Shown here: piece after piece, positions 24,877 to 58,188 of the stretch
Position numbering within the stretch: the stretch's first letter is position 1
Layout of the letters: each line of letters opens with the position of its first letter
Source: an uncultured Verrucomicrobiae bacterium
GTDB taxonomy: Bacteria > Verrucomicrobiota > Verrucomicrobiia > Chthoniobacterales > UBA10450
Direction: 5' to 3'
NCBI GenBank assembly: GCA_963726745.1
Contig: CAVSDR010000004.1
Coordinates: 256,001-320,000, forward strand
Length of the DNA stretch: 64,000 nucleotides
Program-made: the position numbers and the translations under genes
Notes under the pieces: model-generated
What the model saw: the letters and a program-made list of their open reading frames with translations, nothing else
Told to the model about the DNA's origin: nothing
Database searches by the model: none

Positions 24877-24987
24877 CCCAGTGAAAAAAAGTTTCGCAGC
24901 ATAGAGCTAAAAGCGGGGCAGCCTCCGAATCTCCATCGACGTATCTGCTTCCGCAAAACCGAACGCTCGCTACACTCGCACCTATCC

Positions 24988-25911
24988 ATGAAGACCACCT
25001 TCGCCCTTCTCTCGGCCGCCCTGGTCGCCGGCGCCACGGCTTTCGCCCAGGACGCTTCCGATAAACAGCTCACGAGCACACGTTATCGTGAAGTGGCCAC
25101 CACGGAGGAGCGGACCGCACTCGACCTTTTCCAGGTCGACGGCTCCTACGTCTTCGGGAGTGACGTGAAGCGCGACGGGATCAACTATGGCGAGCAGGAA
25201 GCGGTCGACAGTTCGATCGATTACTCCCATCGCTTCTTTCTCGCGGGGAAAATTTACCTGCGTCTCGGCGGCGCTTACGGACGCTTCGATTTCGGCGAGA
25301 CCGCCGCACCCATCCCGGATTCGCTGCAATACGTGAACGCCCGGGTCGCCCTGGAATACATGGTCGGGAACGACATTGGCGCTTTCCTCCAATTCAACCC
25401 CGGCTTCTACACCGAGCGCGCCTTCAATATTTCTTCCTTCGACATCCCGATCACCGCCGGGCGCGTTTTCGTCCTCCAGCCGCGAAAGCTCTTCCTCTTC
25501 GTAGGCGTGAATACGGCCTTCCTCCGCGGCGAGTATCCGGTGCTTCCGCTCGTTGGGCTTGTCTGGCGGCCGAATCCGCAGTGGACCCTGAACCTGCTCC
25601 CGCCCGATCCGCGGGTCATCTATTCGCCAAATAAGAACCTCGATTTCTGGGTTGGCGGCCAACTCGTCGGCTGGTCTTTCCGCACCGATCGCGAGAACGC
25701 AATCGTCCCGCAGCGCCTGAACGGAGCGCAGATTGATTATTCGGAATATCGCGGGGCGCTCGGCATCACTTTCCACCCGTCGGAGCACGTCGCGGTGGAT
25801 CTCGGCGGCGGTTACGTTTTCCAGCGTCGCTTCAATTTCGAGCGTGCGGGGGTGGAGTATAAGGCCGACGGCGCCCCGTTTGTGCGGGCTTCGCTCAAGG
25901 CGGAGTTTTAG
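24988..25911 (+). CDS. Outer-membrane beta-barrel protein (DUF6268-like)
   Basis: Signal peptide, amphipathic strands, 'PLVGLVWRPNPQWTL', C-terminal Phe. Confidence 0.7.
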   Translation: MKTTFALLSAALVAGATAFAQDASDKQLTSTRYREVATTEERTALDLFQVDGSYVFGSDVKRDGINYGEQEAVDSSIDYSHRFFLAGKIYLRLGGAYGRFDFGETAAPIPDSLQYVNARVALEYMVGNDIGAFLQFNPGFYTERAFNISSFDIPITAGRVFVLQPRKLFLFVGVNTAFLRGEYPVLPLVGLVWRPNPQWTLNLLPPDPRVIYSPNKNLDFWVGGQLVGWSFRTDRENAIVPQRLNGAQIDYSEYRGALGITFHPSEHVAVDLGGGYVFQRRFNFERAGVEYKADGAPFVRASLKAEF

Positions 25912-25920
25912 CCAGCGCTT

Positions 25921-27114
25921 TCACTGCTCGATGCGGCGCAAGAGAAAGGCCGCGCCGACGAACGTAACCACCGTTCCAGCGCACAACGCGAGCAGACTTG
26001 GCCCGTAGTAAGCGAAGCCGGCATCGTAGAGATTCACCAGGCGAAACGCCCGGCAAAAATAGGTCAGCGGGAAGAACTCCGAGATCCAGCGGATGCCGGC
26101 CGGTAATTGCTCCAGCGGCGCAAACGCGCCCGACAAAACAAAGACCGGCAGCAAAAAGAAAACCGAGAACTGGATCGCCTGCGTCTGGCTGCGCGAGATC
26201 GCGGAGATGATCAATCCCAGGCCTAACGAGCAAAGAAGGAAGACCAGGCAGATGACCGCGAGCACGAAGGGGTGCCGGAAGGTGACGCCAAAATGCCAGC
26301 CCGCCAGGGCGACGATCATCGCGATCAACCCAAGCGAAATCGCCAGATACGGAATCACTTTGCCGATCACGATCTCGCTGCGGCGGAGCGACGTGACCAT
26401 CAGTTGAAAAAGCGTCCCGGACTCGCGCTCGCGCGCAATCGTGCAAGCCATGAGCGTGACCGTGATCAACTGCAGGATCAGTCCGATGACGCCGGGGATG
26501 ACGTAATCGATGAAGCGCTCCTTCGGGTTATAGAGCAGCGTTTGCCGGATCGTCCACGGCTCCATCGCGGAGACAAATTGCTTCCGCACTTCCACCGGAA
26601 TCTTCTCCGCGAGGTCGAAAACCTCCTGCGGCAGGGCGTCGATCATCTCCTGCCGTTCGCCCAGCTGAAATTCGCCTAACGACTCCTGCACGCTCCCGAA
26701 AAGTTGCGGCGCGATATTGGTGTCGCTGGCGTCGAGGTAGAGCCGCAGCGGGACCGGTTTGCCATCGGCCAGTCCCGCGCTCCAGCCGGCCGGAATCACC
26801 AGCGCGGCCTGCACGCCCTGGTGGAGCAGGTCAATCTGCGCCTCGGTGCCGCTGGCTTCGCGCGTGCGCCAGCGGAAGGTCTTGTTGGTGGAAATTTTGT
26901 CGACGAAACGCTGCGTCTGCGGTGTGGCATCGGCGTTGATCAGGAGCGCGGGCACATCGGTCATTTCCCCGGCCTCGAAAGCGTGTCCGAAGACGAGCGT
27001 GAAAATAGGCGGCAGGATGACCAGGAGCAGGAGGACCCGGCGATCGCGCCAGATGTGGAGAAATTCCTTCCGCGCCACGCTGGCGACTGCTGCGACAAAA
27101 CCGGAACGCATCAT
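25921..27114 (-). CDS. ABC-2 type transporter permease (YbhR/YbhS-like)
   Basis: 'KEFLHIWRDRR', 'YNP', 'IARERESGT', 'LSGAFAP'. Confidence 0.9.
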   Translation of the reverse strand: MMRSGFVAAVASVARKEFLHIWRDRRVLLLLVILPPIFTLVFGHAFEAGEMTDVPALLINADATPQTQRFVDKISTNKTFRWRTREASGTEAQIDLLHQGVQAALVIPAGWSAGLADGKPVPLRLYLDASDTNIAPQLFGSVQESLGEFQLGERQEMIDALPQEVFDLAEKIPVEVRKQFVSAMEPWTIRQTLLYNPKERFIDYVIPGVIGLILQLITVTLMACTIARERESGTLFQLMVTSLRRSEIVIGKVIPYLAISLGLIAMIVALAGWHFGVTFRHPFVLAVICLVFLLCSLGLGLIISAISRSQTQAIQFSVFFLLPVFVLSGAFAPLEQLPAGIRWISEFFPLTYFCRAFRLVNLYDAGFAYYGPSLLALCAGTVVTFVGAAFLLRRIEQ

Positions 27115-28058
27115 GGCAAAGGTGCGAGCAGCGCGGTGTAGCCCTGCGAGTAGGCGGTGAAAACGTCCTCCATATCCGGCTCGACCCAACGCTCCCCGCG
27201 CCAGCGCAGTTCCGGGAAAGGCCAGGCCGCGCGCCAGCGCTCCAGCAAGTTCTCCGGCTCGGCCGCGTAGAGCCGGAGTGCGCCGCTGCGCAGCGAAACT
27301 CCGAGGACGCCCGGCTCTTCCCGCAGCCGCACGAGTGCCGGCATTACCGGGTCCACGTCCAGCTCGAGCAGGCGGGTCTTGAAGCTCGACTTGAAAGCCC
27401 GCGGCGCAGCCCGCGCGAGCAGCCGTCCCTGGTCGATGAAGCCCACATCGGTGCAGCGCTCGGCTTCGTCCATGTAATGCGTGGTGATGAAAATCGTGAT
27501 CCCGCCATGGCTCAGATCGTAGAGTAAATTCCACATCTGCTGCCGGTGCACCGGGTCGAGGCCGGAAGTCGGTTCATCGAGAAAAAGCAGCGGCGGCTCA
27601 TGGATGAGCGCGCAGGCAATCGCGAGCAACTGCCGCACGCCACCCGAGAGACTGCCGGCCGGCGCATGGCGCTTCCGCTCGAGATCGGTCAACGCCAGCA
27701 GCCGGGTGATCCGGCTGTCTAATTCCCGCCCGGGCACGCGCGAGGCGCCGCCAAAGAAGCGCATGTTCTCATCCACCGTGAGGTCGCGGTAGAGGCTGAA
27801 ACGCTGGGCGACGTAGCCGAATTTCGTCCGCGCCAGGTGCCGCTCCCGCCAGACATCGGACCCGGCGATGGTCGCGCGACCACTGGTCGGCCGGACCAAA
27901 CCACAGAGCATGCGCATGGTGGTGGTCTTGCCGGCGCCATTCGCGCCCAGAAAACCGAAGATCGCGCCGCGCTCCACGGTCAACGAGAGCTCACGCACGG
28001 CCTGCGTCTCGCCGTAGTGCTTGCTCAATTTCTCCAGGAGGATGACCGGTTCCTTCAT
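27111..28058 (-). CDS. ABC transporter ATP-binding protein
   Basis: Walker A 'GANGAGKTT', signature 'LSGG', 'LDEPTSGLDP', 'THYMDEAE'. Confidence 0.93.
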   Translation of the reverse strand: MKEPVILLEKLSKHYGETQAVRELSLTVERGAIFGFLGANGAGKTTTMRMLCGLVRPTSGRATIAGSDVWRERHLARTKFGYVAQRFSLYRDLTVDENMRFFGGASRVPGRELDSRITRLLALTDLERKRHAPAGSLSGGVRQLLAIACALIHEPPLLFLDEPTSGLDPVHRQQMWNLLYDLSHGGITIFITTHYMDEAERCTDVGFIDQGRLLARAAPRAFKSSFKTRLLELDVDPVMPALVRLREEPGVLGVSLRSGALRLYAAEPENLLERWRAAWPFPELRWRGERWVEPDMEDVFTAYSQGYTALLAPLP

Positions 28059-28144
28059 CAGCAGAGCGTCACTATGGCCAGCTTTGCGCGGAGCGAAACC
28101 CGGGAGCCCGTTTGCAAAGCCTCGAGCGGACGCAAAATTACCGC

Positions 28145-29074
28145 ATGCGCATCTCCTCTTCGCCGGCCCGAATTTTAGCCGGCGTTATCGTGCTCGCGGG
28201 AGCCGCAACGCTCCGCGCGGATCCCGTCGCCGAGCTGGCGAGCTTCTCGGTTTTCAACGCGGTCGACCTCGCGCAGCTCAAAGGCGAAGCAAAGACCCAG
28301 CGCGGCGAACGCATGAGCAACCCGCGTTTTCTTTCCGTGCAAAGTGTCTGGGTTTCGCCCGGCTCGCCGCAGGAGCTCGCAGCCGCGCTGCGTGGTTTCA
28401 ATCCCGCGCGCCATCCGGAAATGCACGTCCTGCTGCATCAAAACGGCAACAACTTCTCCTCGTTAGGCAAGCTGCCCGCGGGCGCGCCGGTTGATTGGCT
28501 CCGGCAGGCCACGGAGAGCCGCTCGAAGGAATTGCAGATCAGCCAGGAAGAAGCGGCGAAGAGCGGTGCGTTTGCTGATTTTTGGAGCGCAATCCTGAGC
28601 GCCCGCGCCGCCACGGGAGTCTTCGGCCAGCCGTCTTACAGCCACACGGGGAGCAACCTCAAACCGAGCGAACAGATCAACGCGCTCCTCGCGCAGCAGC
28701 CGAAACTTCGGAAGCAATTCGACGGCCTCATCGGCGACAAGGGCGAGACTTACTGGGAGCTGCTGGAGGTGGAACGGAAGGGCGTGCTCACGCTCGGCGC
28801 CTCTTTCAATCGCACCGCCAGCGGTGGCGCCGCGCTTCAGGCCGCCGACGTCTTGTATTACGCCAGCGGCGGCTACGATGCCGCGATCACGCTCTATCAA
28901 ATGTGGCCGGTGACGGTGGACGGAAAGCCAGCGACGCTCGTCTGGCGCGGCGATCTCATCTCGTCTTCCGAGCTCGCCGGGCTCGCCGGGGTGGAGCGGC
29001 TCGGGTCGGAGTCGGCGATGATGAAAGATGTCGGCCGCTCGATCCGCTTTTTCCGTGGCGACACGGGTCGTTAG
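28145..29074 (+). CDS. Secreted hypothetical protein
   Basis: Signal peptide ending 'TLRA-D'; codon-typical ORF upstream of the second barrel gene. Confidence 0.7.
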   Translation: MRISSSPARILAGVIVLAGAATLRADPVAELASFSVFNAVDLAQLKGEAKTQRGERMSNPRFLSVQSVWVSPGSPQELAAALRGFNPARHPEMHVLLHQNGNNFSSLGKLPAGAPVDWLRQATESRSKELQISQEEAAKSGAFADFWSAILSARAATGVFGQPSYSHTGSNLKPSEQINALLAQQPKLRKQFDGLIGDKGETYWELLEVERKGVLTLGASFNRTASGGAALQAADVLYYASGGYDAAITLYQMWPVTVDGKPATLVWRGDLISSSELAGLAGVERLGSESAMMKDVGRSIRFFRGDTGR

Positions 29075-29097
29075 GCGCTAACCTCCGCCGCTCGTCC

Positions 29098-29961
29098 ATG
29101 AAAAAACGTCTCCTGCTCGCCCTTGCCATCTCGCTGTCTGCCGGCTCGCTCCGCGCCGGACCAATCCCGTTCGAAGTCGATGTGCAGACTTCGCTCTCGA
29201 GCGATTCCGAGCTTGCCCGTGGCGGCCGGAAGGTCAGCGGCCTCGACGAAGATTACCTGGCCGCGCGCTTCATTTACACGCCGCGGGTTAGCTTTGGCAT
29301 TCTGCGCTTGGGCGCGGCCTATGAGCGCTTTGGGTTCCGCGCGCCGGCCATGTTCGAGGTCCCGCGCGGCCTGCAATCCCTGACTGCGGTGGTGGGGCTG
29401 GACACGCAGTTTTCCGATTCCATCCTGGTGCGCTTCGAGGCGCAGCCTGGTCTCTACAGCGGCACGCGACTAAGCGGGGGCGACTTCCATGCGCCTTTCA
29501 TCCTCGGCGGCACCTACATCTACAGCCCGGATCTCCAGTTCATCTTCGGCGTGAGCGTCGATTACGAACGCAGCTATCCGGTCTTCCCGGGGCTCGGGGT
29601 GCGTTGGCGGCTCGGGCGGCAGTGGGTCCTCAACGCGGTCCTTCCCACTCCGCGGCTCGAATACGAAATTGCCGACGGCTTCACCCTCTACGCCGGGGCC
29701 GAACTCAAAGGCTCGACCTTCCGGGTAGACGACAACTTCGGAAACGCGCGCGGGAATCGCCGCCTGAACGACGCCGTCATCACCTATAGCGAGGTGCGCA
29801 CCGGCGCCGGCTTCGAGTGGAAGCTCGCCCCGCAGGTGAAGTTCGCGCTCGAGGGCGGTTTCGTGCCGTATCGCAATTTCGATTTCCACCGCACCGACGT
29901 GCGCTACCACCAGGAAAGCGGCGGCGCTTACTTCTCGGCCTCGATCGGCGCGGCTTTCTAG
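29098..29961 (+). CDS. Outer-membrane beta-barrel protein (DUF6268-like), paralogue of 24988-25911
   Basis: Signal peptide, 'PVFPGLGVRWR...WVLNAVLPTPRL', 'YSEVRTG', C-terminal Phe. Confidence 0.72.
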   Translation: MKKRLLLALAISLSAGSLRAGPIPFEVDVQTSLSSDSELARGGRKVSGLDEDYLAARFIYTPRVSFGILRLGAAYERFGFRAPAMFEVPRGLQSLTAVVGLDTQFSDSILVRFEAQPGLYSGTRLSGGDFHAPFILGGTYIYSPDLQFIFGVSVDYERSYPVFPGLGVRWRLGRQWVLNAVLPTPRLEYEIADGFTLYAGAELKGSTFRVDDNFGNARGNRRLNDAVITYSEVRTGAGFEWKLAPQVKFALEGGFVPYRNFDFHRTDVRYHQESGGAYFSASIGAAF

Positions 29962-31373
29962 GCGAGGTGCCGATCGAGCGCGCCGATCTTGCGCGTTTCC
30001 GGCCAGCGCCAGGCCACTCCGAGCACGACCAGGATCGTGCCGATGCCGCCGCCGACCACGCTCACCACCGGGCCGAAAAAGGCCGCGGTCAATCCCGACT
30101 CGAGCGCGCCAAGTTCGTTCGAGGTGCCGATGAAAATGTTGTTTACCGCCGAGATGCGGCCGCGCATTTCATCCGGCGTGAGCAGTTGGATGATCGTATG
30201 CCGCACGACCACGCTCACGCTGTCGAAGACGCCGGTCATGAAGAGCATCGCCAGCGAAAGCCAGAGCGAGCGCGAAAGCCCAAAGAGAATCGTGGCCACG
30301 CCAAAGCCCGCGACGCACCAGAGCAGCGTCCGGCCCGCGCGCCGCATCGGCGGCAGGTAAGCGATCAGGATTGCCATGACCAATCCGCCCGCGCCCGGCG
30401 CCGCCCGCAGCCAGCCCAGACCAACTGGGCCCGCATGCAGGATCTTGTCGGCAAAAATCGGCAGCAACGCGGTCGCCCCACCGAGAAGCACGGCAAACAT
30501 ATCCAGCGTGATCGTGGCGAGGATGACCTTCTTGCTCAGGACAAAGCGCAGCCCGCTCGCGAGACTGCGCAGCGCGCCGCCTTCCACCCGTCCGCCCTGG
30601 TCGCCGCTCTGGATCGGGAGCACGAGCGCGAAAAACGTGAGCGCACAGACCGCATCGAGGAAGTAGAGGAAGTGAAAGCTGGTGCGCACGAGCAGCAAAC
30701 CGGCGAGCGCCGGCCCCGCGATCGAGCCGATCTGGAACATGCTCGAGTTCCACGTGACCGCGTTGGCAAATTGATCGCGCGGCACCAGCTTTGGAAAATA
30801 AGCCGAGCGCGCGGCCCAGCCGAACGTCCGGCCGCAAGCCGCGACGAAGAGAATCAGGTAAATCAGCGGCACCGAGAGATCGTCGAAATGATACGTCGCG
30901 TGGCGTTCAAAGACGGCGGCGACGGCCGAGAGCCCACGATTCCCCGCGGTGAGAAAACGCCATGCCGGCAGGGCGAGGTGTTGCCACGAGACCAGCATCA
31001 GGGCGAGCGAGCAAAGCGCACTCAGCGCCTGCGAGACCAGGATGATGTATTTGCGATTATAGCGGTCGGCGATGTGCCCGGCGGGCAGCGAGAGCACCAG
31101 CACCGGAAGCGCGATCGCCAGGCCCACCAGGCCAAGCGCGGTCGCGGAATGAGTGCGCTGGTAAATCTCCCACTCGACCGCAACCACCAGCATCTGCCGG
31201 CCGACCACGGAAACGAGATTGCCTAACGAGTAAAAGCTGAAGGCGCGGATGCGAAAAGCCGCATACGGATCGTGCCGCGCTTTCCCGTTTGTCGGCAGCG
31301 TGCCCTCGGCCGTGGCCGGACGGTTCACCACCGGGCGCTCATACGCCGGCTCGTCGCCTTTCCCCTCGGCCAT
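29958..31373 (-). CDS. MFS transporter (EntS/DUF894-like)
   Basis: 'GHIADRYNRK', multiple TM segments, 'TPDEMRGRI'. Confidence 0.88.
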   Translation of the reverse strand: MAEGKGDEPAYERPVVNRPATAEGTLPTNGKARHDPYAAFRIRAFSFYSLGNLVSVVGRQMLVVAVEWEIYQRTHSATALGLVGLAIALPVLVLSLPAGHIADRYNRKYIILVSQALSALCSLALMLVSWQHLALPAWRFLTAGNRGLSAVAAVFERHATYHFDDLSVPLIYLILFVAACGRTFGWAARSAYFPKLVPRDQFANAVTWNSSMFQIGSIAGPALAGLLLVRTSFHFLYFLDAVCALTFFALVLPIQSGDQGGRVEGGALRSLASGLRFVLSKKVILATITLDMFAVLLGGATALLPIFADKILHAGPVGLGWLRAAPGAGGLVMAILIAYLPPMRRAGRTLLWCVAGFGVATILFGLSRSLWLSLAMLFMTGVFDSVSVVVRHTIIQLLTPDEMRGRISAVNNIFIGTSNELGALESGLTAAFFGPVVSVVGGGIGTILVVLGVAWRWPETRKIGALDRHLA

Positions 31374-31382
31374 GACGCGCGG

Positions 31383-31785
31383 TTAGCGCACGTAGATCGC
31401 GCTGCCCTCGAGCACGCGGTTTTCCCCCAGCGGCGCAGCGTAGCCCACGCTGGTCCCGTAGCCGTAGGCGCTGTGCCGCCCGTATTCCACCTGCGAACTC
31501 CCAAGGCCGATGCCGATGGTCGCGGAAGGCCGCGTGGCGACCCGCTGGATGAGCACGCCGTTCGCGCCCACCCTCGCCGCCTGCTGGCGCAGATTCCTCC
31601 ACCGTCCGCCCGTCGATCAAGGCAATGCGTTCGAATTGCCGCGGCGGTTGTTCGTAGACCCGCACCGCCGCGGGGCTAATCGCGCGGCGCGGCGTGCCGA
31701 TGACCGTGCGTCCGCCGCCCGCGCCGGTGATGCAGCCGGAAAGGAGCGAAGCGCAGAGCAGCGAGAGCAAAAACGAGCGAATCAT
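31383..31785 (-). CDS. Small lipoprotein; frameshift at ~31590
   Basis: Lipobox 'LLSGC'; 'VRVYEQPP' then '(V)GANGVLI' in the second frame. Confidence 0.65.
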
Positions 31786-34121
31786 GGCAGACGGTAAACC
31801 TCCAGGAGCGCAACGCCACTGCCGCCATCGGCGCCGTGCACCACGGCGGTGTAAGCGCCGGGAGTTGCTTCGAGCACGACCGCCGCCTCGCGCTCGTCCG
31901 CAGGCGCGAGCGCGGTCGCGAGAATGCTGGCTATTTCTCCGTCGCGCCAGTTGTCGTTTGCCGCCACCACCGAGCCGTAGGGATCGCGCAACTCCAGCGC
32001 CGGGTCGGCCAGCGGCGCGGAAATTCCCGCGCCCGCGAGCGACGGCCCCAGCGCGCGCACCAGCAACCGCGCGCTTCCGTTTCCGCGCACGATGAATCCG
32101 CCGATGAGAACCGCGTCGCCTTCACCGACAAACCCGCGCGCGCTCAGGTTTACGATCCGTGTCGCCGGGTCGCCATCGACGTCGAAAATCTCCAGCAAGC
32201 CGACGCCCTGCCCGCCACCCATGATCGCGGTGTAGGCACCGGGCGCGAGCACTTGCCGCAGGGCCGCCTCGCGCTCATCCGCCGGCGTGAGCGTGCCTAA
32301 CGAGTCCGGCGGGAGATCGCGCCAATCATCGTTTGCCGCGAAGACTGCGCCAGCCGCGTTGTGCAGCGCGATCGCAGGATTAGCCAGCACCTTGGCCAGG
32401 CCGGCCACGCTGAGCGACGGCCCCAGGCCGCGCACGATGATGCTCTTCGCCCCCTCGCCCGCGATGATGAAACCGCCAATCGCCCCCTGCTCGCCTTCCC
32501 CCACGCGCAAGCGCACGGAGATGTTCGCCAGCTCCGCGGTCGCCGCCGTCAGCGCCGCGAAAATAGGCAGCGCGATGGGCGCGAACCGGGTTACGCCATT
32601 CGGGTCGCGCGGGAATTTCGCATACGGCAGCCGCAGATCCTCGAAAGAGAATTGATCCGCGCGGACTGCTTCCGGCGCCGGGAAAAGCGCCGCCCCGGAG
32701 GCGCCCACGATATCGTCCTGGTCGACGCCGTCGCCGCTGATCCCGATCGCGCCGATGAGTTCGCCGTTGCGATAAAGCGGGAAGCCGCCAGGGAAAATCG
32801 TGATCCCGTTCGGGAACGTCGTGCTCGGCGGGAAGAACGGAGGAGTCGTTAGGCTGGCTGTGGGCACGAGCGCAGGCAGGGAGGCGCGGACGAAACCGGA
32901 AAGCTCTTCCTGCATCCCGAAGAACGGCCCCGGACCTTCCGGGTCGATCCCGGGCGGGTAGTGCAATTGCGCCAGAAACCCGACCGTGCGCGTGCTGTAA
33001 GCCGCGGGGTTGCGCGAGAAGCCAAGCGCGGTCCGCGCCTTTTGCACGGCGACGTCCCAGCTGAACATGGTCGCGTCGCCCGTGCGAAAAGTAGCCAGCA
33101 CTTTCGGCGGCACGCCAGGGATGCCTGGGTTGTTGACCACGCTGATGAAGGCTTCCATCCGCAGCCCGATGGGCAGCCGGATGGCCGCGCGCGTAGTCCG
33201 CACGCGGTCAGCCGCGGCCTCGATGATCGCGGCCACCTCGGCACTCGTTAGGCGCGGCTGGCCGTTGATCGTGCCCGGGAGCGGGTCGCCCATGATCGGC
33301 TGGCGGATTTGCCCGGTGACCCCGCCGAAGGTCGCGACCGGATAGGGAAAGGCGGGCGGCGACGCGAGCACCGGATAGCCGGCCGCGGCCTTGCCCGGCA
33401 CGCCCGCGCCGCTGGTCGCGCCGGTCGTGCTTTGCACATAAGGCAGCGAGATGCCGGCGATGAAAACATTGCTCGCGCGGATCGACTCCGGCGGCTCGAA
33501 ACCTTTTTGCCCTGCGAGCGCGATGTCTTCGTCTTTCGTGTAGCCGTCGATAAACGTGGTCGGCGGAAACTCCACGCCCGATCCGGTGACGCCGAGGCCG
33601 CCGACGAGCACGCCGTTTTTATAGAGCGGGACGCCGCCGGGGATGCCATTGAGCGAGGTGAGCGGAACGGCGGAGCCGAGCGTGCCGGGCGAGGCGCTGC
33701 CCGGCAGGAAGTCGGGCTTCTTGAAGCGGTTCACATCGGAGAACGGCAGGCTGGAAAAGCCGACGCCGACGAGCGGGCCGGGCGGCTGATTCCGCACCTG
33801 CGGAGGAAAATGCGGTTGGATGATGAAGCCCGCGGTGCGGCTGGTGAAGGCGTTCGAGTTGCTGCTTAAAAACGCAGCCGTGCCCGCTTTCCCGACCGCG
33901 CTGGCGATCTCGAGCGCGTCCGGCTCGCCGCCGCGCACGCTCCAGACGCCGAGGACGTAGCCTTCGCGATCGGTTACCGCGATCACGCTCTGCGGCGCGA
34001 GCTGGCCCGCGCGCCGTGCGGCTTGATCGATCGCGCGCTGCACGTCGCCCGTGGTCAGCTGCGCCCGCACCGGGCCCACGCCGAGGAGGCACGCGAAAAA
34101 AACCAGAAACCATGGCCGCAT
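31782..34121 (-). CDS. Secreted protein with two GlcG/HbpS-like (DUF336) haem-binding domains plus a tandem 'NLSTR'-type C-terminal domain
   Basis: 'VIAVTDREG..KAGTAAF..GGVPLYKNGVLVGGLGVTG' and 'KARTA..GGFPLYRNGELIGAIGISGDGVDQDD'; C-terminal 'LANISVR..GGFII' and 'VNLSARG..IGGFIV'. Confidence 0.8.
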   Translation of the reverse strand: MRPWFLVFFACLLGVGPVRAQLTTGDVQRAIDQAARRAGQLAPQSVIAVTDREGYVLGVWSVRGGEPDALEIASAVGKAGTAAFLSSNSNAFTSRTAGFIIQPHFPPQVRNQPPGPLVGVGFSSLPFSDVNRFKKPDFLPGSASPGTLGSAVPLTSLNGIPGGVPLYKNGVLVGGLGVTGSGVEFPPTTFIDGYTKDEDIALAGQKGFEPPESIRASNVFIAGISLPYVQSTTGATSGAGVPGKAAAGYPVLASPPAFPYPVATFGGVTGQIRQPIMGDPLPGTINGQPRLTSAEVAAIIEAAADRVRTTRAAIRLPIGLRMEAFISVVNNPGIPGVPPKVLATFRTGDATMFSWDVAVQKARTALGFSRNPAAYSTRTVGFLAQLHYPPGIDPEGPGPFFGMQEELSGFVRASLPALVPTASLTTPPFFPPSTTFPNGITIFPGGFPLYRNGELIGAIGISGDGVDQDDIVGASGAALFPAPEAVRADQFSFEDLRLPYAKFPRDPNGVTRFAPIALPIFAALTAATAELANISVRLRVGEGEQGAIGGFIIAGEGAKSIIVRGLGPSLSVAGLAKVLANPAIALHNAAGAVFAANDDWRDLPPDSLGTLTPADEREAALRQVLAPGAYTAIMGGGQGVGLLEIFDVDGDPATRIVNLSARGFVGEGDAVLIGGFIVRGNGSARLLVRALGPSLAGAGISAPLADPALELRDPYGSVVAANDNWRDGEIASILATALAPADEREAAVVLEATPGAYTAVVHGADGGSGVALLEVYRLP

Positions 34122-34210
34122 CTCCTGCTTTTTAAACGCGGGGCCGCGTCGACACCAGTCCGCGATGAGCTTGCAGATCGCGCCGCGCCTCGCGCATTCT
34201 CCCCGCCGGA

Positions 34211-36211
34211 ATGCGACGCCTCATCCTGCTGGCTATTTTCCTCGCCGGAGCCGCGCTCGCCTTCGCGCAGGACGAGCGCCCGCGCATCGCCTGGATGACC
34301 TCGGAGGAAAACGTCGAGCCGCTCGAGCCGCCCCTGCCGCCTAACGAGTTCAATCCCGATCCCGGCGGCCGCGAACCGGCCGAGCCGGTGCCGCCGCCCG
34401 ATCTCTTCCCGCCGATCCTCCCCCAGCTCCCCGATTACGGGACCGAGGACGTGCCGCGCTCGCTCGAGTTGCCGCGCCGCGGCGTGCGCGAAGTGGTGCC
34501 GCGCCGGCGGAAGCTGGAATACCCGGAGTATCCGGAGCCGGCCGATGGCCGTGGCCTGCCGCCGGGCGCGCAGGCGGTGCCGAACCGCTGGTTCATCGGC
34601 TTCGGCCGCTGGCAACGCTACGCCGATCCGACCGCGGAGACGCCTTACCAAGGCGGCCCGCTGCACCTGTGGCATCCCTACTTGCAGAGCCTGCTCAAGG
34701 GCGACGCGCCGGTGATCGGGCAGGATATTTTCCTCAACCTCACCGTGAGCGATTTCGCGCAATTCGAGGCGCGGCGGCTGCCGGTCCCGAGCGGGGTGAG
34801 CACAGTGCGGCCGAACAGCTCCGAGTTCTTCGGGCGGAGCGAACAGCTTTTTGCCTCCAACGATTTCCAGATCGGCATCGATCTTTTCCGCGGCGAGACC
34901 GCTTTCAAGCCGGTCGAGTGGGCCGTGCGCTTTCTCGGCGTCTACAACACGAACTATCTCGCGGTGCAGGAAGCGAACGTGCTCGATCCCGATCCGCGCG
35001 GGCCGGAGCGGCAGCGAACGGTGCGGCAGAAAGATTTCTTCGCGCTCCAGGAAGCGTTCGTCGAGCTGCACCTGCGCGACCTCTCGCAGAACTACGACTT
35101 CATCTCCTCGCGCCTGGGGATTCAGCCGTTCGTGAGCGATTTCCGAGGCTTTATCTTCAACGATTCCAACCTGGGCGTGCGCGTCTTCGGGAACTACGAC
35201 AACAATCGGCTGCAATATAACCTGGCCGCCTTCGACATGCGCGAGAAGGACACCTACTCGGACCTGAATGAGTTCGGCTCGCGCGAGCAGGTCGTGCTCG
35301 TGGCCAACATTTACCGGCAGGATTTCTTCGTGAAGGGCTACACCGCGCAGTTGAGTTTTCACGCCAACTTCGACCAGGCCAGCCGGCATTATGACGAGAA
35401 CGGTTTCCTCGTTAGACCGGCGCTCCTGGGCGACGTGCGCGATCACTATCTGCAGGCCTACTACCTCGGCTGGAGCGGCGACGGGCACATCGGCCGGCTG
35501 AACATTTCGCACGCGGCCTACCAGGTTTTCGGCGAGGACAGCCATAACGGGATCGCCGGGCGGCGGGTGGACATCTTCGCGCAGATGGCCGCGCTCGAGC
35601 TCTCGATCGACCAGGACTGGCTGCGCCATAAGCTCTCCTTCTTCTACGCCAGCGGCGACGACGATCCGAAGAACGGCCAGGCCTCCGGCTTCGATACCAT
35701 CCTCGACCGGCCGTTCTTCGTCGGCGGCCCGTTTAGCTACTACGTGCACCAGGGCTTCAACCTCGCCGGCACGGCGGTGAACTTTAAGCAGCGCGACAGC
35801 CTGGTGATCGATTTCCGCAGCAGCAAGACCGAGGGACAGGCGAACTTCGTCAATCCCGGCGCGGTCATCCTCGGTTACGGCGCCGACGCGGAGATCACGC
35901 CGAAGCTGCGCGCTTTCCTGAACGTGAACTACATCTGGATGGTCACGACCGAGCCCGTGCGGCAGGTGCTCTTCACGAACAACGCCAGCCACGAAGTCGG
36001 GCTCGATTGCTCGTTAGGCGTCCAATGGCGCCCGTTGCTCACGGACAACATCGTCGTCTCCGCCGGCGCCGGCTTCCTCGTCCCGGGCGCAGGCTACGAG
36101 GACATCTACCGCGCCAACACGCGCCCCGTGCCCGGCTTTCGGCAGGAGCACGTGGGAAAGGTGGACGACTTCTTGTTCAGCGGGATTCTGACGGTAACGC
36201 TGGTTTACTGA
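34211..36211 (+). CDS. Putative outer-membrane beta-barrel (porin-like) protein
   Basis: Signal peptide, Pro-rich N-region, many alternating aromatic strands, 'YASGDDDP', C-terminal 'LTVTLVY'; its TGA overlaps the next ATG. Confidence 0.72.
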   Translation: MRRLILLAIFLAGAALAFAQDERPRIAWMTSEENVEPLEPPLPPNEFNPDPGGREPAEPVPPPDLFPPILPQLPDYGTEDVPRSLELPRRGVREVVPRRRKLEYPEYPEPADGRGLPPGAQAVPNRWFIGFGRWQRYADPTAETPYQGGPLHLWHPYLQSLLKGDAPVIGQDIFLNLTVSDFAQFEARRLPVPSGVSTVRPNSSEFFGRSEQLFASNDFQIGIDLFRGETAFKPVEWAVRFLGVYNTNYLAVQEANVLDPDPRGPERQRTVRQKDFFALQEAFVELHLRDLSQNYDFISSRLGIQPFVSDFRGFIFNDSNLGVRVFGNYDNNRLQYNLAAFDMREKDTYSDLNEFGSREQVVLVANIYRQDFFVKGYTAQLSFHANFDQASRHYDENGFLVRPALLGDVRDHYLQAYYLGWSGDGHIGRLNISHAAYQVFGEDSHNGIAGRRVDIFAQMAALELSIDQDWLRHKLSFFYASGDDDPKNGQASGFDTILDRPFFVGGPFSYYVHQGFNLAGTAVNFKQRDSLVIDFRSSKTEGQANFVNPGAVILGYGADAEITPKLRAFLNVNYIWMVTTEPVRQVLFTNNASHEVGLDCSLGVQWRPLLTDNIVVSAGAGFLVPGAGYEDIYRANTRPVPGFRQEHVGKVDDFLFSGILTVTLVY

Positions 36212-39200
36212 TGAAGAAGCGGCTGGCTACTAATTCGCTTCGTCACGGGCATCCGAAGCGCGGCGGGAGACTTTGGATCACGGCAGCTTCCCTGCTCCTA
36301 GCGACCGCCACCGTCGCCAGCGCCCAGGATCTCCCGCCGACCTCCGTTTCGCCAGATGCCGACGTGACCCACCCGGCGCCGGCTCCGCGCCGCAACTGGA
36401 TCGACCAGACCCAAGCCCAAGCCGACGGCAAAAGCAGCGGCTGCCTCCAATGCCACGCGGGCGTGGAGCCGATGCACGCCTCGCCCGCGGTTGTGCTCGG
36501 CTGCGTCGATTGCCATGGCGGCAATCCCGCGCGTGGCCTGGCGAAAGAGCAGGCGCATGTCCTCCCGAAGAACGCCGAGTTTTGGAAGTCGTCGGCTAAT
36601 CCGCCGAACTCGCACGCCTGGTTGAACCACGAATCGCCCGAGTTCATCCGTTTCATCAATCCCGGCGACCTGCGTGTCGCCGACAAATCCTGCGGCCTGT
36701 GCCACGGCGAGATCATCCGCAACGTCCATCACAGCATGATGCGCCACGGCGCGATGCTTTGGGGCGCAGCGCTCTATAACAACGGCGGCTACAACCAAAA
36801 GAATTACCGCTTTGGCCAAGCCTACGGCGCGAGCGGGGTGCCGCTGCGCCTCGAGAGTTACGAGCCGGTCACGGCCAACGAAACGAGGACGCGCGGGCTG
36901 CTGCCGTTCCTCGATCCGCTCCCGCGCTTCAACCTGAGCAATCCCGGGAACATCCTGCGCATCTTCGAGAAGGGCGGCGAGAAGCCGCTCTCGTTAGGCA
37001 ACCCGACGATCAACGAGCCGCCCGGCCGGCCGGCGCGCCGCCTTTCCGAGCGCGGCCTCGGCACCTCGAACCGCACCGACCCGGTCTTCCTCGGCCTGCA
37101 GAAAACGCGGCTGCACGATCCGTTGCTCGACTTCCTCGGCTCGAACGATCACCCCGGCGATTACCGCTCGAGCGGCTGCTCCGCCTGCCACGTGGTCTAC
37201 GCGAACGATCGCTCACCGAGCAACTCCGGCTGGTGGAGCAAATATGGGCACCAAGGGCTGAGCTTCACCGCGGACAAAACGATCCCGAAGAACGAGCCGG
37301 GACACCCGGTGCTGCACCAATTCACCCGCTCGATCCCCTCGAGCCAGTGCATGAACTGCCACATGCACCAGGGCAACCTCTTCGTGAACCCGTTCCTCGG
37401 TTACACCTGGTGGGACCAGGAAACAGACGGCGAGTTCATGTATCCAAAGGAACAGCGGGACCCGACCGACGCAGAGCTCGCGCAGGCGGTGCAGAAGAAT
37501 CCCGAGGCCGCAGCGGCGCGCGGACTTTGGGGCGACCCGGATTTCGTGGCGAAAGTCGCGGAGTTAAATCCGCAACTGAAGCACACGCAATTTGCCGATT
37601 ACCATGGGCACGGCTGGGTCTTTCGCGCGGTCTTCAAGAAGGACCGGAAGGGCAACCTGCGGGATTTAGCCGACAACTTGATCGCGCACGACGACCCGGA
37701 AAAGTTCAAGAAGGCGGTGCACTTGAAGGATGTCCACCTCGCGAAAGGGATGCAGTGCGTCGACTGCCATTTCGACCTCGACGTGCACGGCAACGGCAAC
37801 CTCTACGGCGAGGCGCGCAACGCCACCAGCATCACCTGCGTGGATTGCCACGGGACGATCCGGCAACGGCCCACGCTGGTCACGAGCGGCAACGCGGGCG
37901 CGATCGACCTCGCCCAAACCAGCAACACGCCCTTCGGTCCGCGCTTCCGCTGGGAGGGGACGCGGCTCTGGCAGCAATCGACCATGTCGCCGGATGTCCG
38001 CTGGGAAATCCCGCAAACGATCGACACGGTTGATCCGCTCTCGGCGCACTACAACGCGAAGTCGGCCTATGCCAAGACGCTCCAGCGCGACGGCCAAAGC
38101 TGGGGCGGCAGCCGCGCGCGCGATGCGAACGGCGGCCCGCACCTGGCGCACGACAACGAGAAGATGGATTGCCAGATCTGCCACACCTCCTGGGCGACCA
38201 GTTGTTTTGGCTGCCACCTGCCGATGAAGGCAAACGTGCGCGCGGCGCAGAACAAGTTCGAAGGCGTGACCGACCGCAACTTCACCACCTACAACCCGCA
38301 GGTGGTGCGCGACGACGTCTTCATGCTCGGGATCGATGGGACGGTGAAGGGCAACCGGATGGCGGTGATCCGTTCCTCCAGCGCGGTCGTGGTCAGCTCG
38401 CAAAACGCCAACCGCGAGTGGGTCTACTCACAGGCGCAGACGATCTCGGCCGAGGGCTACAGCGGGCAGGCGTTCAACCCGCACTTCGCGCATACCACCA
38501 GCGGCGTCGGGACAACCAAAGGCTGCACCGATTGCCACCTCTCACAGGCGAACGACAACAACGCCTGGATGACGCAGCTCCTCGGGTTCGGCACCGGGCT
38601 GATGAACTTCTTCGGCCGCTACGCCTACGTCGGCGAAGGACCGGATGGCTTCCACGCGGTCGCCTGGACGGAAGCGGAGGAGCCGCAGGCGGCGCTCGGC
38701 AGCCACCTTCATCGTCTCGCCTACCCGGCCAATTTTAAGCAGCACCTTGAGCGCGGCGGAAGACTGGAAGAGGCGCACGAACATTCCGGGAAAAACATCC
38801 AGGACCTCGTGCTCCGCGGCGAATACCTCTACACCGCAAACGGGCCCGGCGGGCTGGAGGTGTTCGACGTGGCGAACATCGACCAGAAAGGTTTCTCCGA
38901 GCGGATCGTGACCTCGCCGGTTTCGCCGCTCGGGCAACGGACTTACGTGCCCACGAAGTTCGCCACCAGCGTGGCGCTGCCGGCGACCGTGGCGCTCGAT
39001 CCCGCGCGGGTCCGCCGGCCCGAAAACGAAGAGCAACCGATCGACCCATTCTACGGCTACGTCTTTGTCTCCGATCTCGAGGAAGGCCTGGTGATCGTGA
39101 ACGTGGCGTCGCTGGTCGATGGCGATCCGAACAATAATTTCCTGAAGAAGGATGCGGTCTTCAATCCCGACGGCCTTCTCGCGCGGCGCCAGCTTCGTGG

Positions 39201-40039
39201 CCGCGGCCGGCCATCGTCTTTACCTGACCACGCCGCGCGGACTCTTCGTGGTCAACGTGGCCGACCCGCTCCATCCGCGCCTGGAGGGAAGCCTCACGAA
39301 CGGTTTCCTGCGCAATCCACGCTGCGTTTCCATCCAGTTCCGCTACGCCTTCGTGACCGACGACGAAGGCCTGAAAGTGCTGGATATTTCCGAACCGGCG
39401 CGACCGGTGCCGGTGCGTGGCGGCGTGGTGCGCTTGAAGCAAGCCGGCCGGCTCTACGTCGCGCGCACGTATGCCTACGTGGCCAATGGCGCGGAGGGCC
39501 TTGCGATTGTCGACGTCGAGAACCCGGAGCAACCGCGGCTGGAGCAGATGTTCAATGCCGGCGGCGCGCTTAATGACACGCGCGCGGTGCAGGTAGGCGC
39601 AGTGAGCGCGTCGATGTTCGCGCTGGTCGCCGATGGGAAGAACGGCCTGCGGGTGGTGCAGTTGATCTCGCCGGATACGGTCCCGGGCGCGCAAGGTTTC
39701 AGTCCGCGCCCGAACCCCAAGTTGATCGCCACCTTTCCCACGCACGGCGAAGCGATCGCCGTCTCGCGCGGGCTCGATCGCGACCGGGTGGTCGACGAGA
39801 CCGGCGGGCAGACGGTGGTCTTCGGCCGGCGCGGCGCGCGGCCTTTCCATCTCAGCGAGCTCTCGCGTTTTTTCCGCAAGAGCGATGGGAGCGGCGCACT
39901 TTTCCGGGTGGAAGACGTCGAGGCGCGCGAGGGAAAACTACGCACGCGCAGCGGTGTTTTGCTCGCCCCCCTGCCGACTCCCACGCCCTCACCCACTCCG
40001 CCGCCAGTGGAGCCGACGCCTTTGCCGGATTTGCGGTAG
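36211..40039 (+). CDS. Large decahaem c-type cytochrome with C-terminal LVIVD beta-propeller repeats; frameshift at ~39180
   Basis: Signal peptide; ten CxxCH motifs (CLQCH, CVDCH, CGLCH, CSACH, CMNCH, CVDCH, CVDCH, CQICH, CFGCH, CTDCH); repeats such as 'YAYVANGAEGLAIVDVENPEQP'. Confidence 0.85.
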
Positions 40040-40075: not shown

Positions 40076-41210
40076 ATGGAACCGACTCCTGCCGACGAAG
40101 CACCGCCAGCCGCCGCATCCGAGGAGATGATCGCCGTGCCGCGGAGGCGCATGCCGGACCTGCTCCAGCGGCCCTTCGACATCCGGTCGTTCGCGCTCAG
40201 CGGGCTGTTTATTCTCGCGCTCTTTTACACCTTCTACTTCACCCGCGCGCTGCTCCTCCCGATCGTGCTCGCCTTGCTCCTGAGTTTCTCTGCTCGCGCC
40301 TTTCGTACGCGGCCTGGCCAAGGTGCGCATCCCGGCGCCGGTCAGCGCAGTAGTGCTCCTGGTCGCGATTATCGGCACGCTCGGCTACGGGGTTTCCTTC
40401 CTTGCGGCGCCCGCGGCTGGCTGGCTGGAGAATGCGCCCTACGGGATGCAGCAACTGCAGCAGCGCCTGGTGCCGTTGCGCAAACCGATGGAGAAAGTCG
40501 CCCAGGCCAGCGGGGAGATCGAAAACCTGACTGCGCCCACAGCCAAGCAGCCGGTCCCGACGGTGGAGGTGAAACAGCATCACATGAGCGAGATGATCCT
40601 CGGCCGGACGCCGGAGTTTATCGCCAGTGTGGTCTTGCTCCTGATCCTGCTCTACTTCCTCCTGGCTTACGACGGCGTCTTTCTCGGCAAGGTGATCAAA
40701 ATGATGCCGCGCCTGAAGGACAAGAAGCGCGCGGTCTCGATCGCGCATGACATCGAGCGCCACGTCTCGCGCTATCTGCTCACGGTCACCTTGATTAACG
40801 TCTCGTTAGGAGCGGCGGTCGGCTTGAGCGTGGGCCTGCTGGGTTTGAAGAACCCGGTGATGTGGGGAGTGCTCGTGGCGGTGTTAAACTTCGTGCCCTA
40901 CCTCGGCCCGCTCGTGGGCATTGCTTGCATGACCATTGGCGCGGTCCTGAGTTATCCCAGCCTCGGCTACGCCATGATCTTTCCCGGGATTTACCTCGCG
41001 ATTGCCACGATCGAGGGGAACTTCATCACCCCAATGGTCATGGGCCGGTCGCTGACGCTCAATCCCGTGCTCATCCTGCTCTCGATCACCTTCTGGGGGT
41101 GGCTCTGGGGAATCGTCGGGATCATCGTCGCGGTGCCGATCCTGGCCTCGTTTAAGATCTTCTGTGAGCACATCGAACCGATGGAGCCGATCGCGGAATT
41201 TCTCAGTTGA
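40076..41210 (+). CDS. AI-2E family transporter; frameshift at ~40290
   Basis: 'LLYFLL', 'NFVPYLGP', 'EGNFITP', 'FWGWLWGIVG...AVP'. Confidence 0.85.
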
Positions 41211-53154: not shown

Positions 53155-56100
53155 CTACGGCCGGACGATCGCAGTCGGCGGTGTGCTTGCACTCGTTAGG
53201 GCGAAGACCTCTACGATGCCCACCCCGGTGCCTCCGTTTTTCCCGCGCACGATTGCAGTCGAGGGGCCAGGCATGAAGTTGAAGATCAGCGCCGACTCGC
53301 GGTCGTCGGTTGGCGCCAGTCCGGTGCCTTCAATGTCTGCCTGCGCGACATCCTTCCAGTCGTCGTTCGAGGCGATGACGTCGCCAGCCGCGTTGTAGAC
53401 TTGCATCGTGGGATCTGCCAGGAGGCCGGTGAGCCCTGAGCTGGCGAGTGATGGGCCGCGCGCACGCAGGATTACCTTGGAAACGCCGCTACCGCCGGGC
53501 CCCACGATCAACCCAGCGATCAGCACTTCATCGCCGCTGCCGACGAAGCAACGTGTGCTGATGTTGCTCAAGCGGGCGCTGCTCGCCGTGCCCAGGTCGA
53601 AGACCTCCACCAGCCCGATGCCGGTAGTGTTGTGCGCCCCGGAAAGCACCGCGGTGTAAGCGCCAGGATCGAGCGTGGCCACGATCGCCGACTCGGAGTC
53701 GTGCGTCGGCGCGAGCATCGAATTTTCGATCTCAAGTTGCTGGCTGTCTTTCCAGTTATCGTTCATCGCCACGAGGGTGCCGCCGGCGTAGAGCTTGAGC
53801 AGCGGATCGGCCAGCACCGTGGAAAGGCCGCGTCCGCTCAGGGTCTGGCCCAGGCCGCGGATGATCACCTTCTTCGGTTCGCCGCCGGTGATGATGAAGC
53901 CGCCGATGCCCACCTTGTCTGCCGTGAGCACGCACAGGCGGCTGGAGAGATTAAGCAACGGCGCGCCCTGCACGATGGTGGCCTCGGCGACAAAAAAGCC
54001 GTCGATCAAGGTGGCGACCTCGCCGCCGGTGGTGAGCAGGATGCTGCGGAAGCCAATGGCTGCGCCGGAAGCGATCGAGATGCGCACCTTCGCATGCGTC
54101 GCATCCGTCACCGTGACCGAGAGCACCGTGATCCCATCGCCGAACGAGGCGGTGGTGGTGCCGTTGACGAAGCTCGTGTTCGAGCCGGTCACATCGACGT
54201 CGAGCACCTGGCCGCGCTCGCCGGCATTCGGAAGCGCGCCGATTAACTGCGGCACGACCGCCACGCTGCTATTCACAAAGAGCGCCCGCTGCTTGTCCTC
54301 CGTGGCGCCGTCGGTGGTCACATCCGCAGCGCGGAAACCGATTCGCGCCGACGGGTCCACTTCCACCATCGCCTCGATCAAGGTGGGCGAGAGGACCGTG
54401 CGTGACGTAATCGTGATCCCGTCGCCTAACGAGAGCATGGAAGTGTCCTTCCAGGCGGTGTTGATCCCGCGGACGGTGACTTTTTGCGCGGTGTTTTGGC
54501 TAACCGCGTTTGGTTCCACGCTTAATAGCGTGGGCGCGGTGATCTCCGGCACGATCTCGACCAGGTCGCGGCCCGCAGCAGTTTCGGTGGCGGAGCCGAG
54601 CGGAGTCTGCACGGTCACGTCGCGGAAGCCGAGCGTGGCGCTGGCATCGACATTCACCAAAACGGTAAGCCGCGTGGCGGTGGAGACCGTGACCGAGACG
54701 ACATCGATGCCCGTCCCGGCAAAGCTCACGGTGCTGCCCGTCCGCCAGTTCGTCCCGCGGCCGACGAGCTCGATCGCGAGCATCGTGCCCTGCGGCAGAT
54801 TATCGGAATCTGCCTGCAGCACGCTCGGTCCGAGGGTGCTCGACATGATGTTGAAGAGAGCGGCTTCGTATTCCGTGCGCGCGCCGGTATTCACGTCGTC
54901 GCGCACGATGAAAGCGCCGCCTGTTTCCGCCGACATGGTCGAGAAGAGCTGCACCGCCGAGGTCAGGAAAGCGAAGGCATCCTCCGCGACCTTGAGCCGA
55001 TAAGCCGAGGGTGTGCTGCTCGTGGAGCGCGTAACCGCGACGAAATAATCTCCCGAAACCGTCGGCCGGAAGGTCAATTGCGCCGGCCGGCTGCTAAATG
55101 GAGATCCACTTGTAATGAAGGTCGTCCCGTCGGTGTCGTAGAGCGTCACCAGCGGAGTCGTTCCGCCCTCGAGGAAAGCGGTCACAGCGTAGGGCCGGCC
55201 AGCTTCCAGATGCACCTGGAAATAGTCCGCCGCATCCGGTGCCAGGCCCACTAACCCGCGCACTTCCTCCTGGTTCACCAGCAGGGTGGTGGCAGTCGCC
55301 GGCGTGTCGCCGCCTTCATCCGGCGGCGGCTGGCCGGGGTCCACGATCGGGTCCTGGCCCGGGTCGTCATCGCCTGGTTTCGAGGGATAGATCCCGAAGC
55401 GCGTGGCGCCGGCGCCGCTAACGAACTGGATCTGCGGCGTGGCCGGGGCTGCATCCTCCGCCTGTGGCGGGTTCAGCGTGGCGCCGGCCATGATGCCAAC
55501 GCAATCGCCGGAAAGCACCGTGTTCATGGTCACGCGCTTGGCCCGCAATTGCGCCACGACCGCGCCATTATCCACGCCTGGCTGCGAGGAGGCGTCGGTC
55601 GCGAAAAGGATCGTGCCTCCCGGAGAGATGTTGCCGGCTGCCACCTGCAGCGCCTGCGCGCCCGCTTCCGGGCAATCGCCGCCGCCCGAGGCAAAGAGCG
55701 CGGCCACCGCGGAGCGCACGGCATCGAGGTTGTTCGAGGTGATCCGGGTGGTCACGTTATCCTTGAAGGTGATCAACTGAATCGTCGGCGGCGTGCCACC
55801 ACGCGCCGCGACCGCATCGATGAAGCTTTGCAGCGCACTCCGGACGCCGGCGATTTCTTCGCCCATGCTGCCGGTATCATCGATCACGAAGATGATCGAG
55901 ATGCCGCCGATGCTCCGCGCCCGGCTCCAATAATGGTCGAGCGTGCCGCCCGGCGTCACCGGCGCGCTGGTGTTCTTCCCTTCCACGACCCACTTCACCA
56001 CGCTGTCGCCTCCCACGATCGTGGCCCATTCAGCCATCGAAGGCGTGAAGGTGGTGACGTTCCCGAGTTCCTTCTCGAAGATGATCGAGCTGAAGTCGTT

Positions 56101-58074: not shown

Positions 58075-58188
58075 AGCCCCGCCATGTTGCAGCCGAGGCC
58101 CCTTCACCTGACAAGCTAATTTTTCGCGCCGCCGCCGCGCGGTCCATGCTTAGCGGGAGAAGCTAGAAATTTCCGCAAAGAACTCCGC

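Follow-up and report, generated by a model that had tools for sequence, protein, structure and literature searches.

The window analysed here, 64,000 nucleotides from an uncultured Verrucomicrobiae bacterium, carries three adjoining genes that encode a candidate outer-membrane beta-barrel, a secreted decahaem cytochrome c fused to a beta-propeller, and a secreted GlcG protein with two DUF336 domains. In the reading that we prefer, and which we consider evenly balanced between right and wrong, this triad belongs to a seven-gene envelope chain that would carry electrons outward from NAD(P)H to a small substrate, with the decahaem-propeller protein as the wire, the GlcG protein holding the substrate and the barrel serving as a narrow entrance. 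The gene content, gene order, co-occurrence, homologies and conserved residues on which this reading draws were observed directly. The genome that carries the window (labelled G000; 3.4 Mb, 94.7% complete) has its relatives among the Chthoniobacterales, and it contains cytochrome c maturation genes (3 PF01578 matches), a check proposed in the original prediction on this DNA. The module consists of the following features.

31782..34121, minus strand: GlcG protein; 779 amino acids, signal peptide, two DUF336 domains, C-terminal domain of ~250 residues
31785..32531, minus strand: C-terminal domain of the GlcG protein; no Pfam match, common to 35 open reading frames (ORFs) of the genome
34122..34210, no strand: divergent intergenic region, 89 base pairs
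34211..36211, plus strand: outer-membrane beta-barrel candidate; 666 amino acids, signal peptide, terminal Tyr
36211..40039, plus strand: secreted decahaem cytochrome c-propeller fusion; ~1275 amino acids, +1 frameshift near 39183
36442..38538, plus strand: haem domain; residues 78-776, colinear with ExtM-like 12-haem proteins
38610..39850, plus strand: seven-bladed LVIVD-repeat beta-propeller; boundaries approximate, frameshift inside

Conservation of the triad and its partner genes

The stop codon of the barrel gene overlaps the start codon of the cytochrome gene in TGATG at 36209-36213, as originally described, and the divergent GlcG gene lies 89 base pairs away, across a spacer in which no sigma-70-like site was found. 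We kept 80 of 113 loci and counted gene order only where enough flank was available (70, 62 or 57 of the 80). The cytochrome follows the barrel in 65/70 loci, GlcG precedes the barrel in 57/62 and both partners stand in this order in 51/57; an arrangement kept this often is not due to chance, and the three-gene neighbourhood bore out the earlier expectation. The system was found in 4 of the 251 genomes of a phylum-wide survey, and the cytochrome in 53 of the 121 genomes (about 44%) surveyed in one Chthoniobacterales family. Among scored candidates, 3688 of 7999 were relatives of the barrel and all 8000 of 8000 relatives of the cytochrome; the distant ones with a name belong to Planctomycetota, Pseudomonadota and Ca. 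Xenobia, to which Atlas clusters add Acidobacteriota.

Two further genes travel with the triad. Among the 121 family genomes we found the barrel in 52, GlcG in 53, the cytochrome in 53, a c554-type cytochrome in 56 and a membrane-anchored decahaem in 55; all five genes occur together in 52 genomes, 63 have none of them, and the six mixed cases are mostly fragments. As a control, the pentahaem gene of another multihaem cluster in G000 was found in 14/121 genomes, 2 of them shared with the triad, with a Fisher p of 0.02 that is overstated because kin genomes are not independent. The c554-type gene and the membrane-anchored decahaem lie on another contig than the triad in G000 (C6) and in many other genomes too. 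In Sphingobium herbicidovorans, one run of genes comprises the c554-type gene, GlcG, the barrel and the cytochrome; convergent to it lies a second run, for a FAD/NAD(P)-binding, cyclic nucleoside monophosphate (cNMP)-binding 4Fe4S protein, a membrane protein resembling cytochrome b, and an FHA-decahaem. Most or all parts share one strand in the metagenome loci L089 and L091, and in several family members, too, a single cluster contains most or all of them. The membrane protein and the cNMP protein flank the decahaem in all 8 clustered regions that were fetched. The membrane protein, whose gene lies outside the window on C6, carries SGxxG and two WX3HX13H motifs in 4/4 proteins checked, and proteins of this type are read as dihaem cytochromes b in the available text of He et al. 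(PMC5566968).

The NAD(P)H-binding modules vary at the inner end of the chain: in some cases the cNMP protein is fused to a pyridine-nucleotide oxidoreductase, in others there is a NuoEFG-like diaphorase. The latter was found in 20/121 genomes, 19 of which also have the cytochrome; in one example (L106:8898-13399), a NuoEF-like part accompanies a cNMP-FeS protein with a fused NuoG-like domain. A CysJ-like FAD/NAD-binding protein is encoded after the c554-type gene in G000 (L093:7998-9383, on C6) as well as in G277, G328 and G275, and it is a possible electron donor in G000.

The cytochrome, the barrel and the GlcG protein

We compared 119 close homologues of the cytochrome for length and CxxCH count, 33 members in profile searches and 23 full-length divergent sequences for haem ligands. 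Residues 78-776 contain ten CxxCH motifs (at residues 78, 98, 161, 323, 380, 516, 543, 654, 665 and 772) and no Cys beyond these, and exactly ten motifs occur in 117/119 homologues. Near-invariant residues outside the motifs provide ten ligand candidates, namely H89 (21/23), H116 (22/23) and M177, H369, H386, H504, H509, H526, H647 and H761 (each 23/23), with H465 (20/23), H467 (21/23) and H365 (18/23) left over as conserved His residues. Because there are ten ligand candidates for ten haems, the alignments suggest that all ten haems are six-coordinate and that the cytochrome is a wire; an open catalytic haem, which the original prediction had proposed to look for, is not called for by this count. 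The AlphaFold2 model of the intact homologue L026 (145 sequences; predicted local distance difference test score, pLDDT, 83.3; predicted template modelling score 0.87) has a seven-bladed propeller in its C-terminal part (best Z 30.3, root-mean-square deviation 2.6, 299 residues aligned to 6nau_A). The ten CxxCH motifs and LVIVD repeats of the first description were confirmed. Fold searches with the full model retrieved propellers only; folding of the haem domain without an alignment gave a pLDDT of 29, and that model was discarded. Sequence searches of the PDB returned no significant match for the cytochrome.

Sequence profiles placed the haem domain. The NCBIfam family ExtM (NF040943) is the best match in 31/33 members (best E 3e-28), with scores of 64-97 bits that are far under the cut-off of 800. 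With hhalign (probability 99.8, E 6e-29, 464 columns), the haem domain aligned end to end with two ExtM-like proteins, which serve as proxies and are themselves under the ExtM cut-off. All ten haems pair in this alignment, the position of the Met ligand included; haem 4 of the ExtM-like proteins is absent here, with a conserved insert in its place, and the propeller stands where they have haem 12. The MtrA/DmsE family TIGR03508, compared with the 31/33 for ExtM, matches 6/33 members (best E 5e-5). By sequence, the decahaem is thus related, and colinear, to the 12-haem proteins of the ExtM-like kind and shows no relation to MtrA above noise; the view that the module is no Mtr homologue was supported. 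One homologue, P0254, has an 18-haem N-terminal extension joined to the decahaem-propeller, with 28 CxxCH motifs in all, which suggests that an upstream carrier may have been fused to it.

The barrel received no Pfam, NCBIfam or PDB sequence assignment. We counted by hand ~18 amphipathic strands on the sequence, after a Pro-rich N-terminal extension; the alternation score exceeds 1.3 in 12/18 of these strands, and an automatic count gave 23 peaks, loops included. The language-model features of the barrel are nearest to Alginate export clusters (0.95, 198/256 features), and the Alginate export profile PF13372 matches 1 of the 69 members used for profile tests, at E 0.4. AlgE has 18 strands. MtrB has 26 according to the available part of bioRxiv 10.1101/2022.05.06.490989, and none of the 69 members has an MtrB-type Pfam match at E<=1; a barrel of ~18 strands is likely to be too narrow for an MtrA-type insert, as far as the hand count holds. 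The barrel profile also scored a probability of 0.04 against the porin of the ptd-type cluster in G000, a proxy assigned by gene content. Since Arg, Lys, Asp and Glu residues are invariant at 40% identity, the alignment suggests a selective pore or a docking face. Complex prediction for the barrel with the GlcG protein gave a score of 0.01, from which no verdict on binding was drawn.

In the GlcG protein, PF03928 matches two stretches (81.7 bits; cut-off 25), and the best PDB match is 6bws (E 3e-6). The divergent gene and its two domains thus agree with the original prediction; its haem-binding label fared differently. PduOC binds haem through His18, which is essential according to the accessible portion of PMC4923194. 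The corresponding position is Q28 in GlcG domain 1, that helix has no conserved His in either domain, and no His is invariant in the protein, H104 alone being near-conserved (53 of the 55 homologues counted). Since the ligand His18 is not kept, 'haem-binding' is, on the alignment, a family label only. In EfgA, formaldehyde hydrate or formate is held by K57, S114, D121 and possibly R42, as given in the available text of PMC8153426 (numbering offset 20, verified on alleles in that paper). Domain 2 of the GlcG protein has R346, K361, S462 and D469 at the positions of EfgA R42, K57, S114 and D121, each in 55/55 homologues, although the Ser/Asp motif (S462/D469) had been used in selecting them; of this pocket, domain 1 retains the Lys alone. 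From these residues, the protein looks like a small-ligand binder rather than a haem binder. The ~250-residue C-terminal domain, which is C-terminal in 32 of the 35 ORFs of G000 that share it and is absent in many GlcG homologues, is likely to be a lineage-specific sorting or anchoring domain. Because proteobacterial homologues start with a lipoprotein-type signal, as read from their sequences, and this signal is replaced here by the shared C-terminal domain, the GlcG protein is likely to be envelope-anchored. The same domain also occurs at 53155-58107 of the window and ends many large secreted proteins.

The cytochrome had been described as one ~1275-residue protein, and in this respect the description did not hold for the assembly, where two ORFs (36211-39573 and 39152-40039) are joined by a +1 shift near 39183 over a coding span of 1276.33 codons. 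Because 114/119 close homologues are at least 1200 residues long and hence read through, shifts occur at other positions in 8 of 80 related loci, and a short-read contig mends another shift of the window, the frameshift near 39183 is likely to be an assembly error. The mended shift lies in the AI-2E transporter ORF (~40280-40290), where the short-read contig lacks one base at 40290; a small lipoprotein-like ORF (31339-31785) appears shifted as well. A genuine frameshift, in a module that is decaying in this strain, is most improbable. In its favour, the assembly shows a broken frame at a site devoid of read coverage; against it, further ORFs in the window are shifted too, the shifts of the 8 other loci fall at different places and the partner genes are intact. 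A read search of one DNA run (share 0.11; no RNA run was listed) found no piece crossing the frameshift.

Proposed electron path and alternatives

According to the reading that we prefer, the cNMP-2x[4Fe-4S] protein would receive electrons from NAD(P)H in the cytoplasm, or from ferredoxin, and pass them on through the dihaem membrane protein, the membrane-anchored decahaem and the c554-type cytochrome. The decahaem-propeller, as the final wire with six-coordinate haems, would deliver them to a small substrate that is held, and possibly converted, by the GlcG protein after admission through the narrow channel of the barrel. We infer the order of the chain from the localisation of its parts, and its outward direction from the potentials that NAD(P)H and c-type haems usually have. 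The chain would probably be under cNMP control. Our best guess for the substrate is a small anionic or carbonyl compound; nothing in the analysis points to humics, metals or haem, which had originally been suggested. Several observations weigh against this reading. GlcG or the cytochrome is missing within the flank of 6/57 loci, and the genomes surveyed are related by kinship and not independent. In G000, the NuoEFG-like diaphorase was not found with the query used, and the cNMP protein is devoid of a flavin domain. Haem coordination was counted from alignments and the barrel was read from the sequence; the spare H465 and H467, together with the region of the invariant Lys298, leave room for the cytochrome itself to be the catalyst.

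Such a decahaem-propeller enzyme, with a site at the lost ExtM haem 4 or at the spare His pair and with GlcG as an accessory, is in our view unlikely. It would resemble propeller-plus-cytochrome enzymes and octahaem tetrathionate reductase (OTR). The insert in place of haem 4 is rich in invariant R, K, D, N and Y residues, Y694, Q697, R700, R721 and Q741 are invariant in the beta-sheet of the cytochrome, as are 22 positions of its propeller, and hhalign against the OTR family (probability 91, E 9e-7) aligns K298 and haem 4 with the region of the Lys and the catalytic haem in these proteins. However, the OTR profile TIGR04315 matches only 4/33 members (best E 0.0014), a weak result for proteins so rich in CxxCH and one that falls far short of the ExtM-like match, and the ten haems are already covered by ten ligand candidates. 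The same ligand count suits a different wire, an Mtr-like extracellular conduit, with the cytochrome placed inside the barrel or on its surface and passing electrons to humics, metal oxides or electrodes. Translational coupling and adjacency of the two genes agree with it, and this role is proposed for the sister PCC4 and ptd clusters in the available parts of PMC5566968 and bioRxiv 10.1101/2023.11.21.568154. We nevertheless regard the conduit as unlikely: the 69 barrel members lack any MtrB-family match, the barrel has ~18 hand-read strands instead of 26, the haems are spaced at 70 residues per haem compared with 26-30 in PCC3 wires, there is neither a lipobox nor another surface cytochrome, and the near-obligate GlcG protein would be left unexplained.

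Redox sensing, in which GlcG would be a ligand sensor like HbpS and EfgA and the chain would relay the redox state of the envelope to or from cyclic-nucleotide signalling, appears very unlikely to us. Characterised DUF336 proteins include sensors and the chain contains cNMP domains, but an apparatus of over 20 c-type haems and NAD(P)H modules is costly for sensing. Also in favour of sensing, genes for a CHASE2 cyclase, FecR/TPR proteins and barrels adjoin the module in three lineages (L087:1-9620, L056:3665-7770 and L108:3-4971), and the cyclase is a possible source of the cyclic nucleotide; against a signalling role, the CHASE2 genes of G000 lie >100 kb from the module or on another contig.

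A more speculative extension of the seven-gene chain, which we consider rather unlikely, is that aerobic bacteria of soil and water possess a cyclic-nucleotide-gated electron line that starts at NAD(P)H and reaches the outer membrane, with a common inner half and swappable end-pieces, either the ptd pentahaem and porin or the triad, and that the triad combines a cofactor-free DUF336 head, catalytic or substrate-presenting, with an ExtM-derived wire. If true, this would be an enzyme architecture not yet described, present in ~44% of a dominant soil Verrucomicrobia family. The hosts of the module (53/121 genomes of that family, Sphingomonadales, Planctomycetota and other phyla) are mostly not regarded as electroactive. 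The module also cautions that a porin-multihaem pair does not automatically mean metal respiration. The parts list is complete, with seven genes plus optional donors, and is present in cultured Sphingobium and Sphingopyxis strains. The substrate, once found, would provide a function for three orphan families, the ExtM-like cytochromes, the secreted DUF336 proteins and the triad barrel, and could expose an overlooked NAD(P)H-consuming envelope reaction in abundant soil bacteria.

Other genes near the module were not taken as parts of it. In many relatives, a gene between the barrel and the cytochrome encodes a 23S rRNA-IVP four-helix-bundle protein; it was rejected as a module component and looks like a mobile insert. 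It is translationally coupled, and repeated peptide-coding motifs lie on either side of it (for example at L001:9863-10336 and L004:11827-12333). The MFS, AI-2E and DUF6268 neighbours in the window were rejected likewise, being kept in close kin only. At 24982-29961, two DUF6268-like small barrels surround an ABC transporter and an unknown secreted protein; only close relatives keep these genes near the module.

Comparison with known systems

In a literature search that left subscription papers mostly outside, we found no description of the barrel, decahaem-propeller and GlcG triad, nor did the analysis return a full-length match to a characterised enzyme. The DUF336 proteins EfgA, PduOC and HbpS (PMC8153426 and PMC4923194, as far as available) share the PF03928 fold family with the GlcG protein, which has the EfgA pocket in its domain 2. 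In contrast to them, it has two domains in one secreted chain, long inserts and a link to a cytochrome, and the His18 of PduOC is gone. Alginate export proteins (AlgE-like, PF13372) resemble the barrel in language-model features, in size and in the hand count of 18 strands, whereas the PDB gave no sequence match and no polysaccharide synthesis genes lie near the triad. With MtrAB, MtoAB and PioAB the module has in common that a barrel gene adjoins a secreted decahaem, but neither partner is related above noise, the barrel is smaller, and the cytochrome is much larger, haem-sparse and fused to a propeller. We also considered as the same system the porin-octahaem cluster of Verrucomicrobia (PMC5615132), rejected for its eight haems, and Uet, rejected on architecture.

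Geobacter ExtM (GSU2935, from extHIJKLMNOPQS; PMC5877670) has a small porin in its cluster, as here, and both ExtM and the two ExtM-like proxies adjoin small porins or sulfur-handling genes; the available texts of PMC5877670 and PMC11976967 give no known activity for ExtM. The decahaem-propeller differs from it in having ten haems, not twelve, a propeller fusion and several swapped ligand positions. Unlike the ext cluster, the triad clusters seen have no rhodanese, Rieske or ExtKL genes, and their hosts include aerobes. ExtM-like 11-12-haem genes occur in two Verrucomicrobia genomes (L114 and L115), one of them adjoining a molybdo-enzyme/NrfD/rhodanese-YeeE cluster.

The closest likeness is to PCC4 (He et al. 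2017, PMC5566968) and ptdABCDEFG (Elbon et al., bioRxiv 10.1101/2023.11.21.568154), the function of which was untested there according to the available texts. A separate cluster of this type is present in G000 (L095, C3:264000-283500), beside system II maturation genes, and contains a porin, a pentahaem, a tetrahaem, a cNMP-FeS protein, a membrane protein, a decahaem and a FAD/NAD/2Fe-2S reductase. Its pentahaem is the control gene counted above, of whose 14 genomes only 2 have the triad, so that the two systems come close to excluding each other. Common to PCC4/ptd and the present system is the inner half, with the cNMP-binding 2x[4Fe-4S] protein (PtdE), the ferric-reductase-like membrane protein bearing WX3HX13H motifs (PtdF) and the decahaem (PtdG), together with the tetrahaem (PtdD), an NAD(P)-binding flavoprotein and a porin. 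PCC4/ptd have the PtdA pentahaem and the PtdB porin, in place of which we find the decahaem-propeller, an unrelated barrel and GlcG. The triad replaces PtdA/PtdB and would therefore work like PCC4/ptd but is no member of that group. Of the distinct class first proposed, a conserved barrel-cytochrome-GlcG module was supported; by homology, this module is no stand-alone class but forms the outer part of a chain of seven genes with kinship to PCC4/ptd, offering a second end-piece for a chain that has so far been unexplained.

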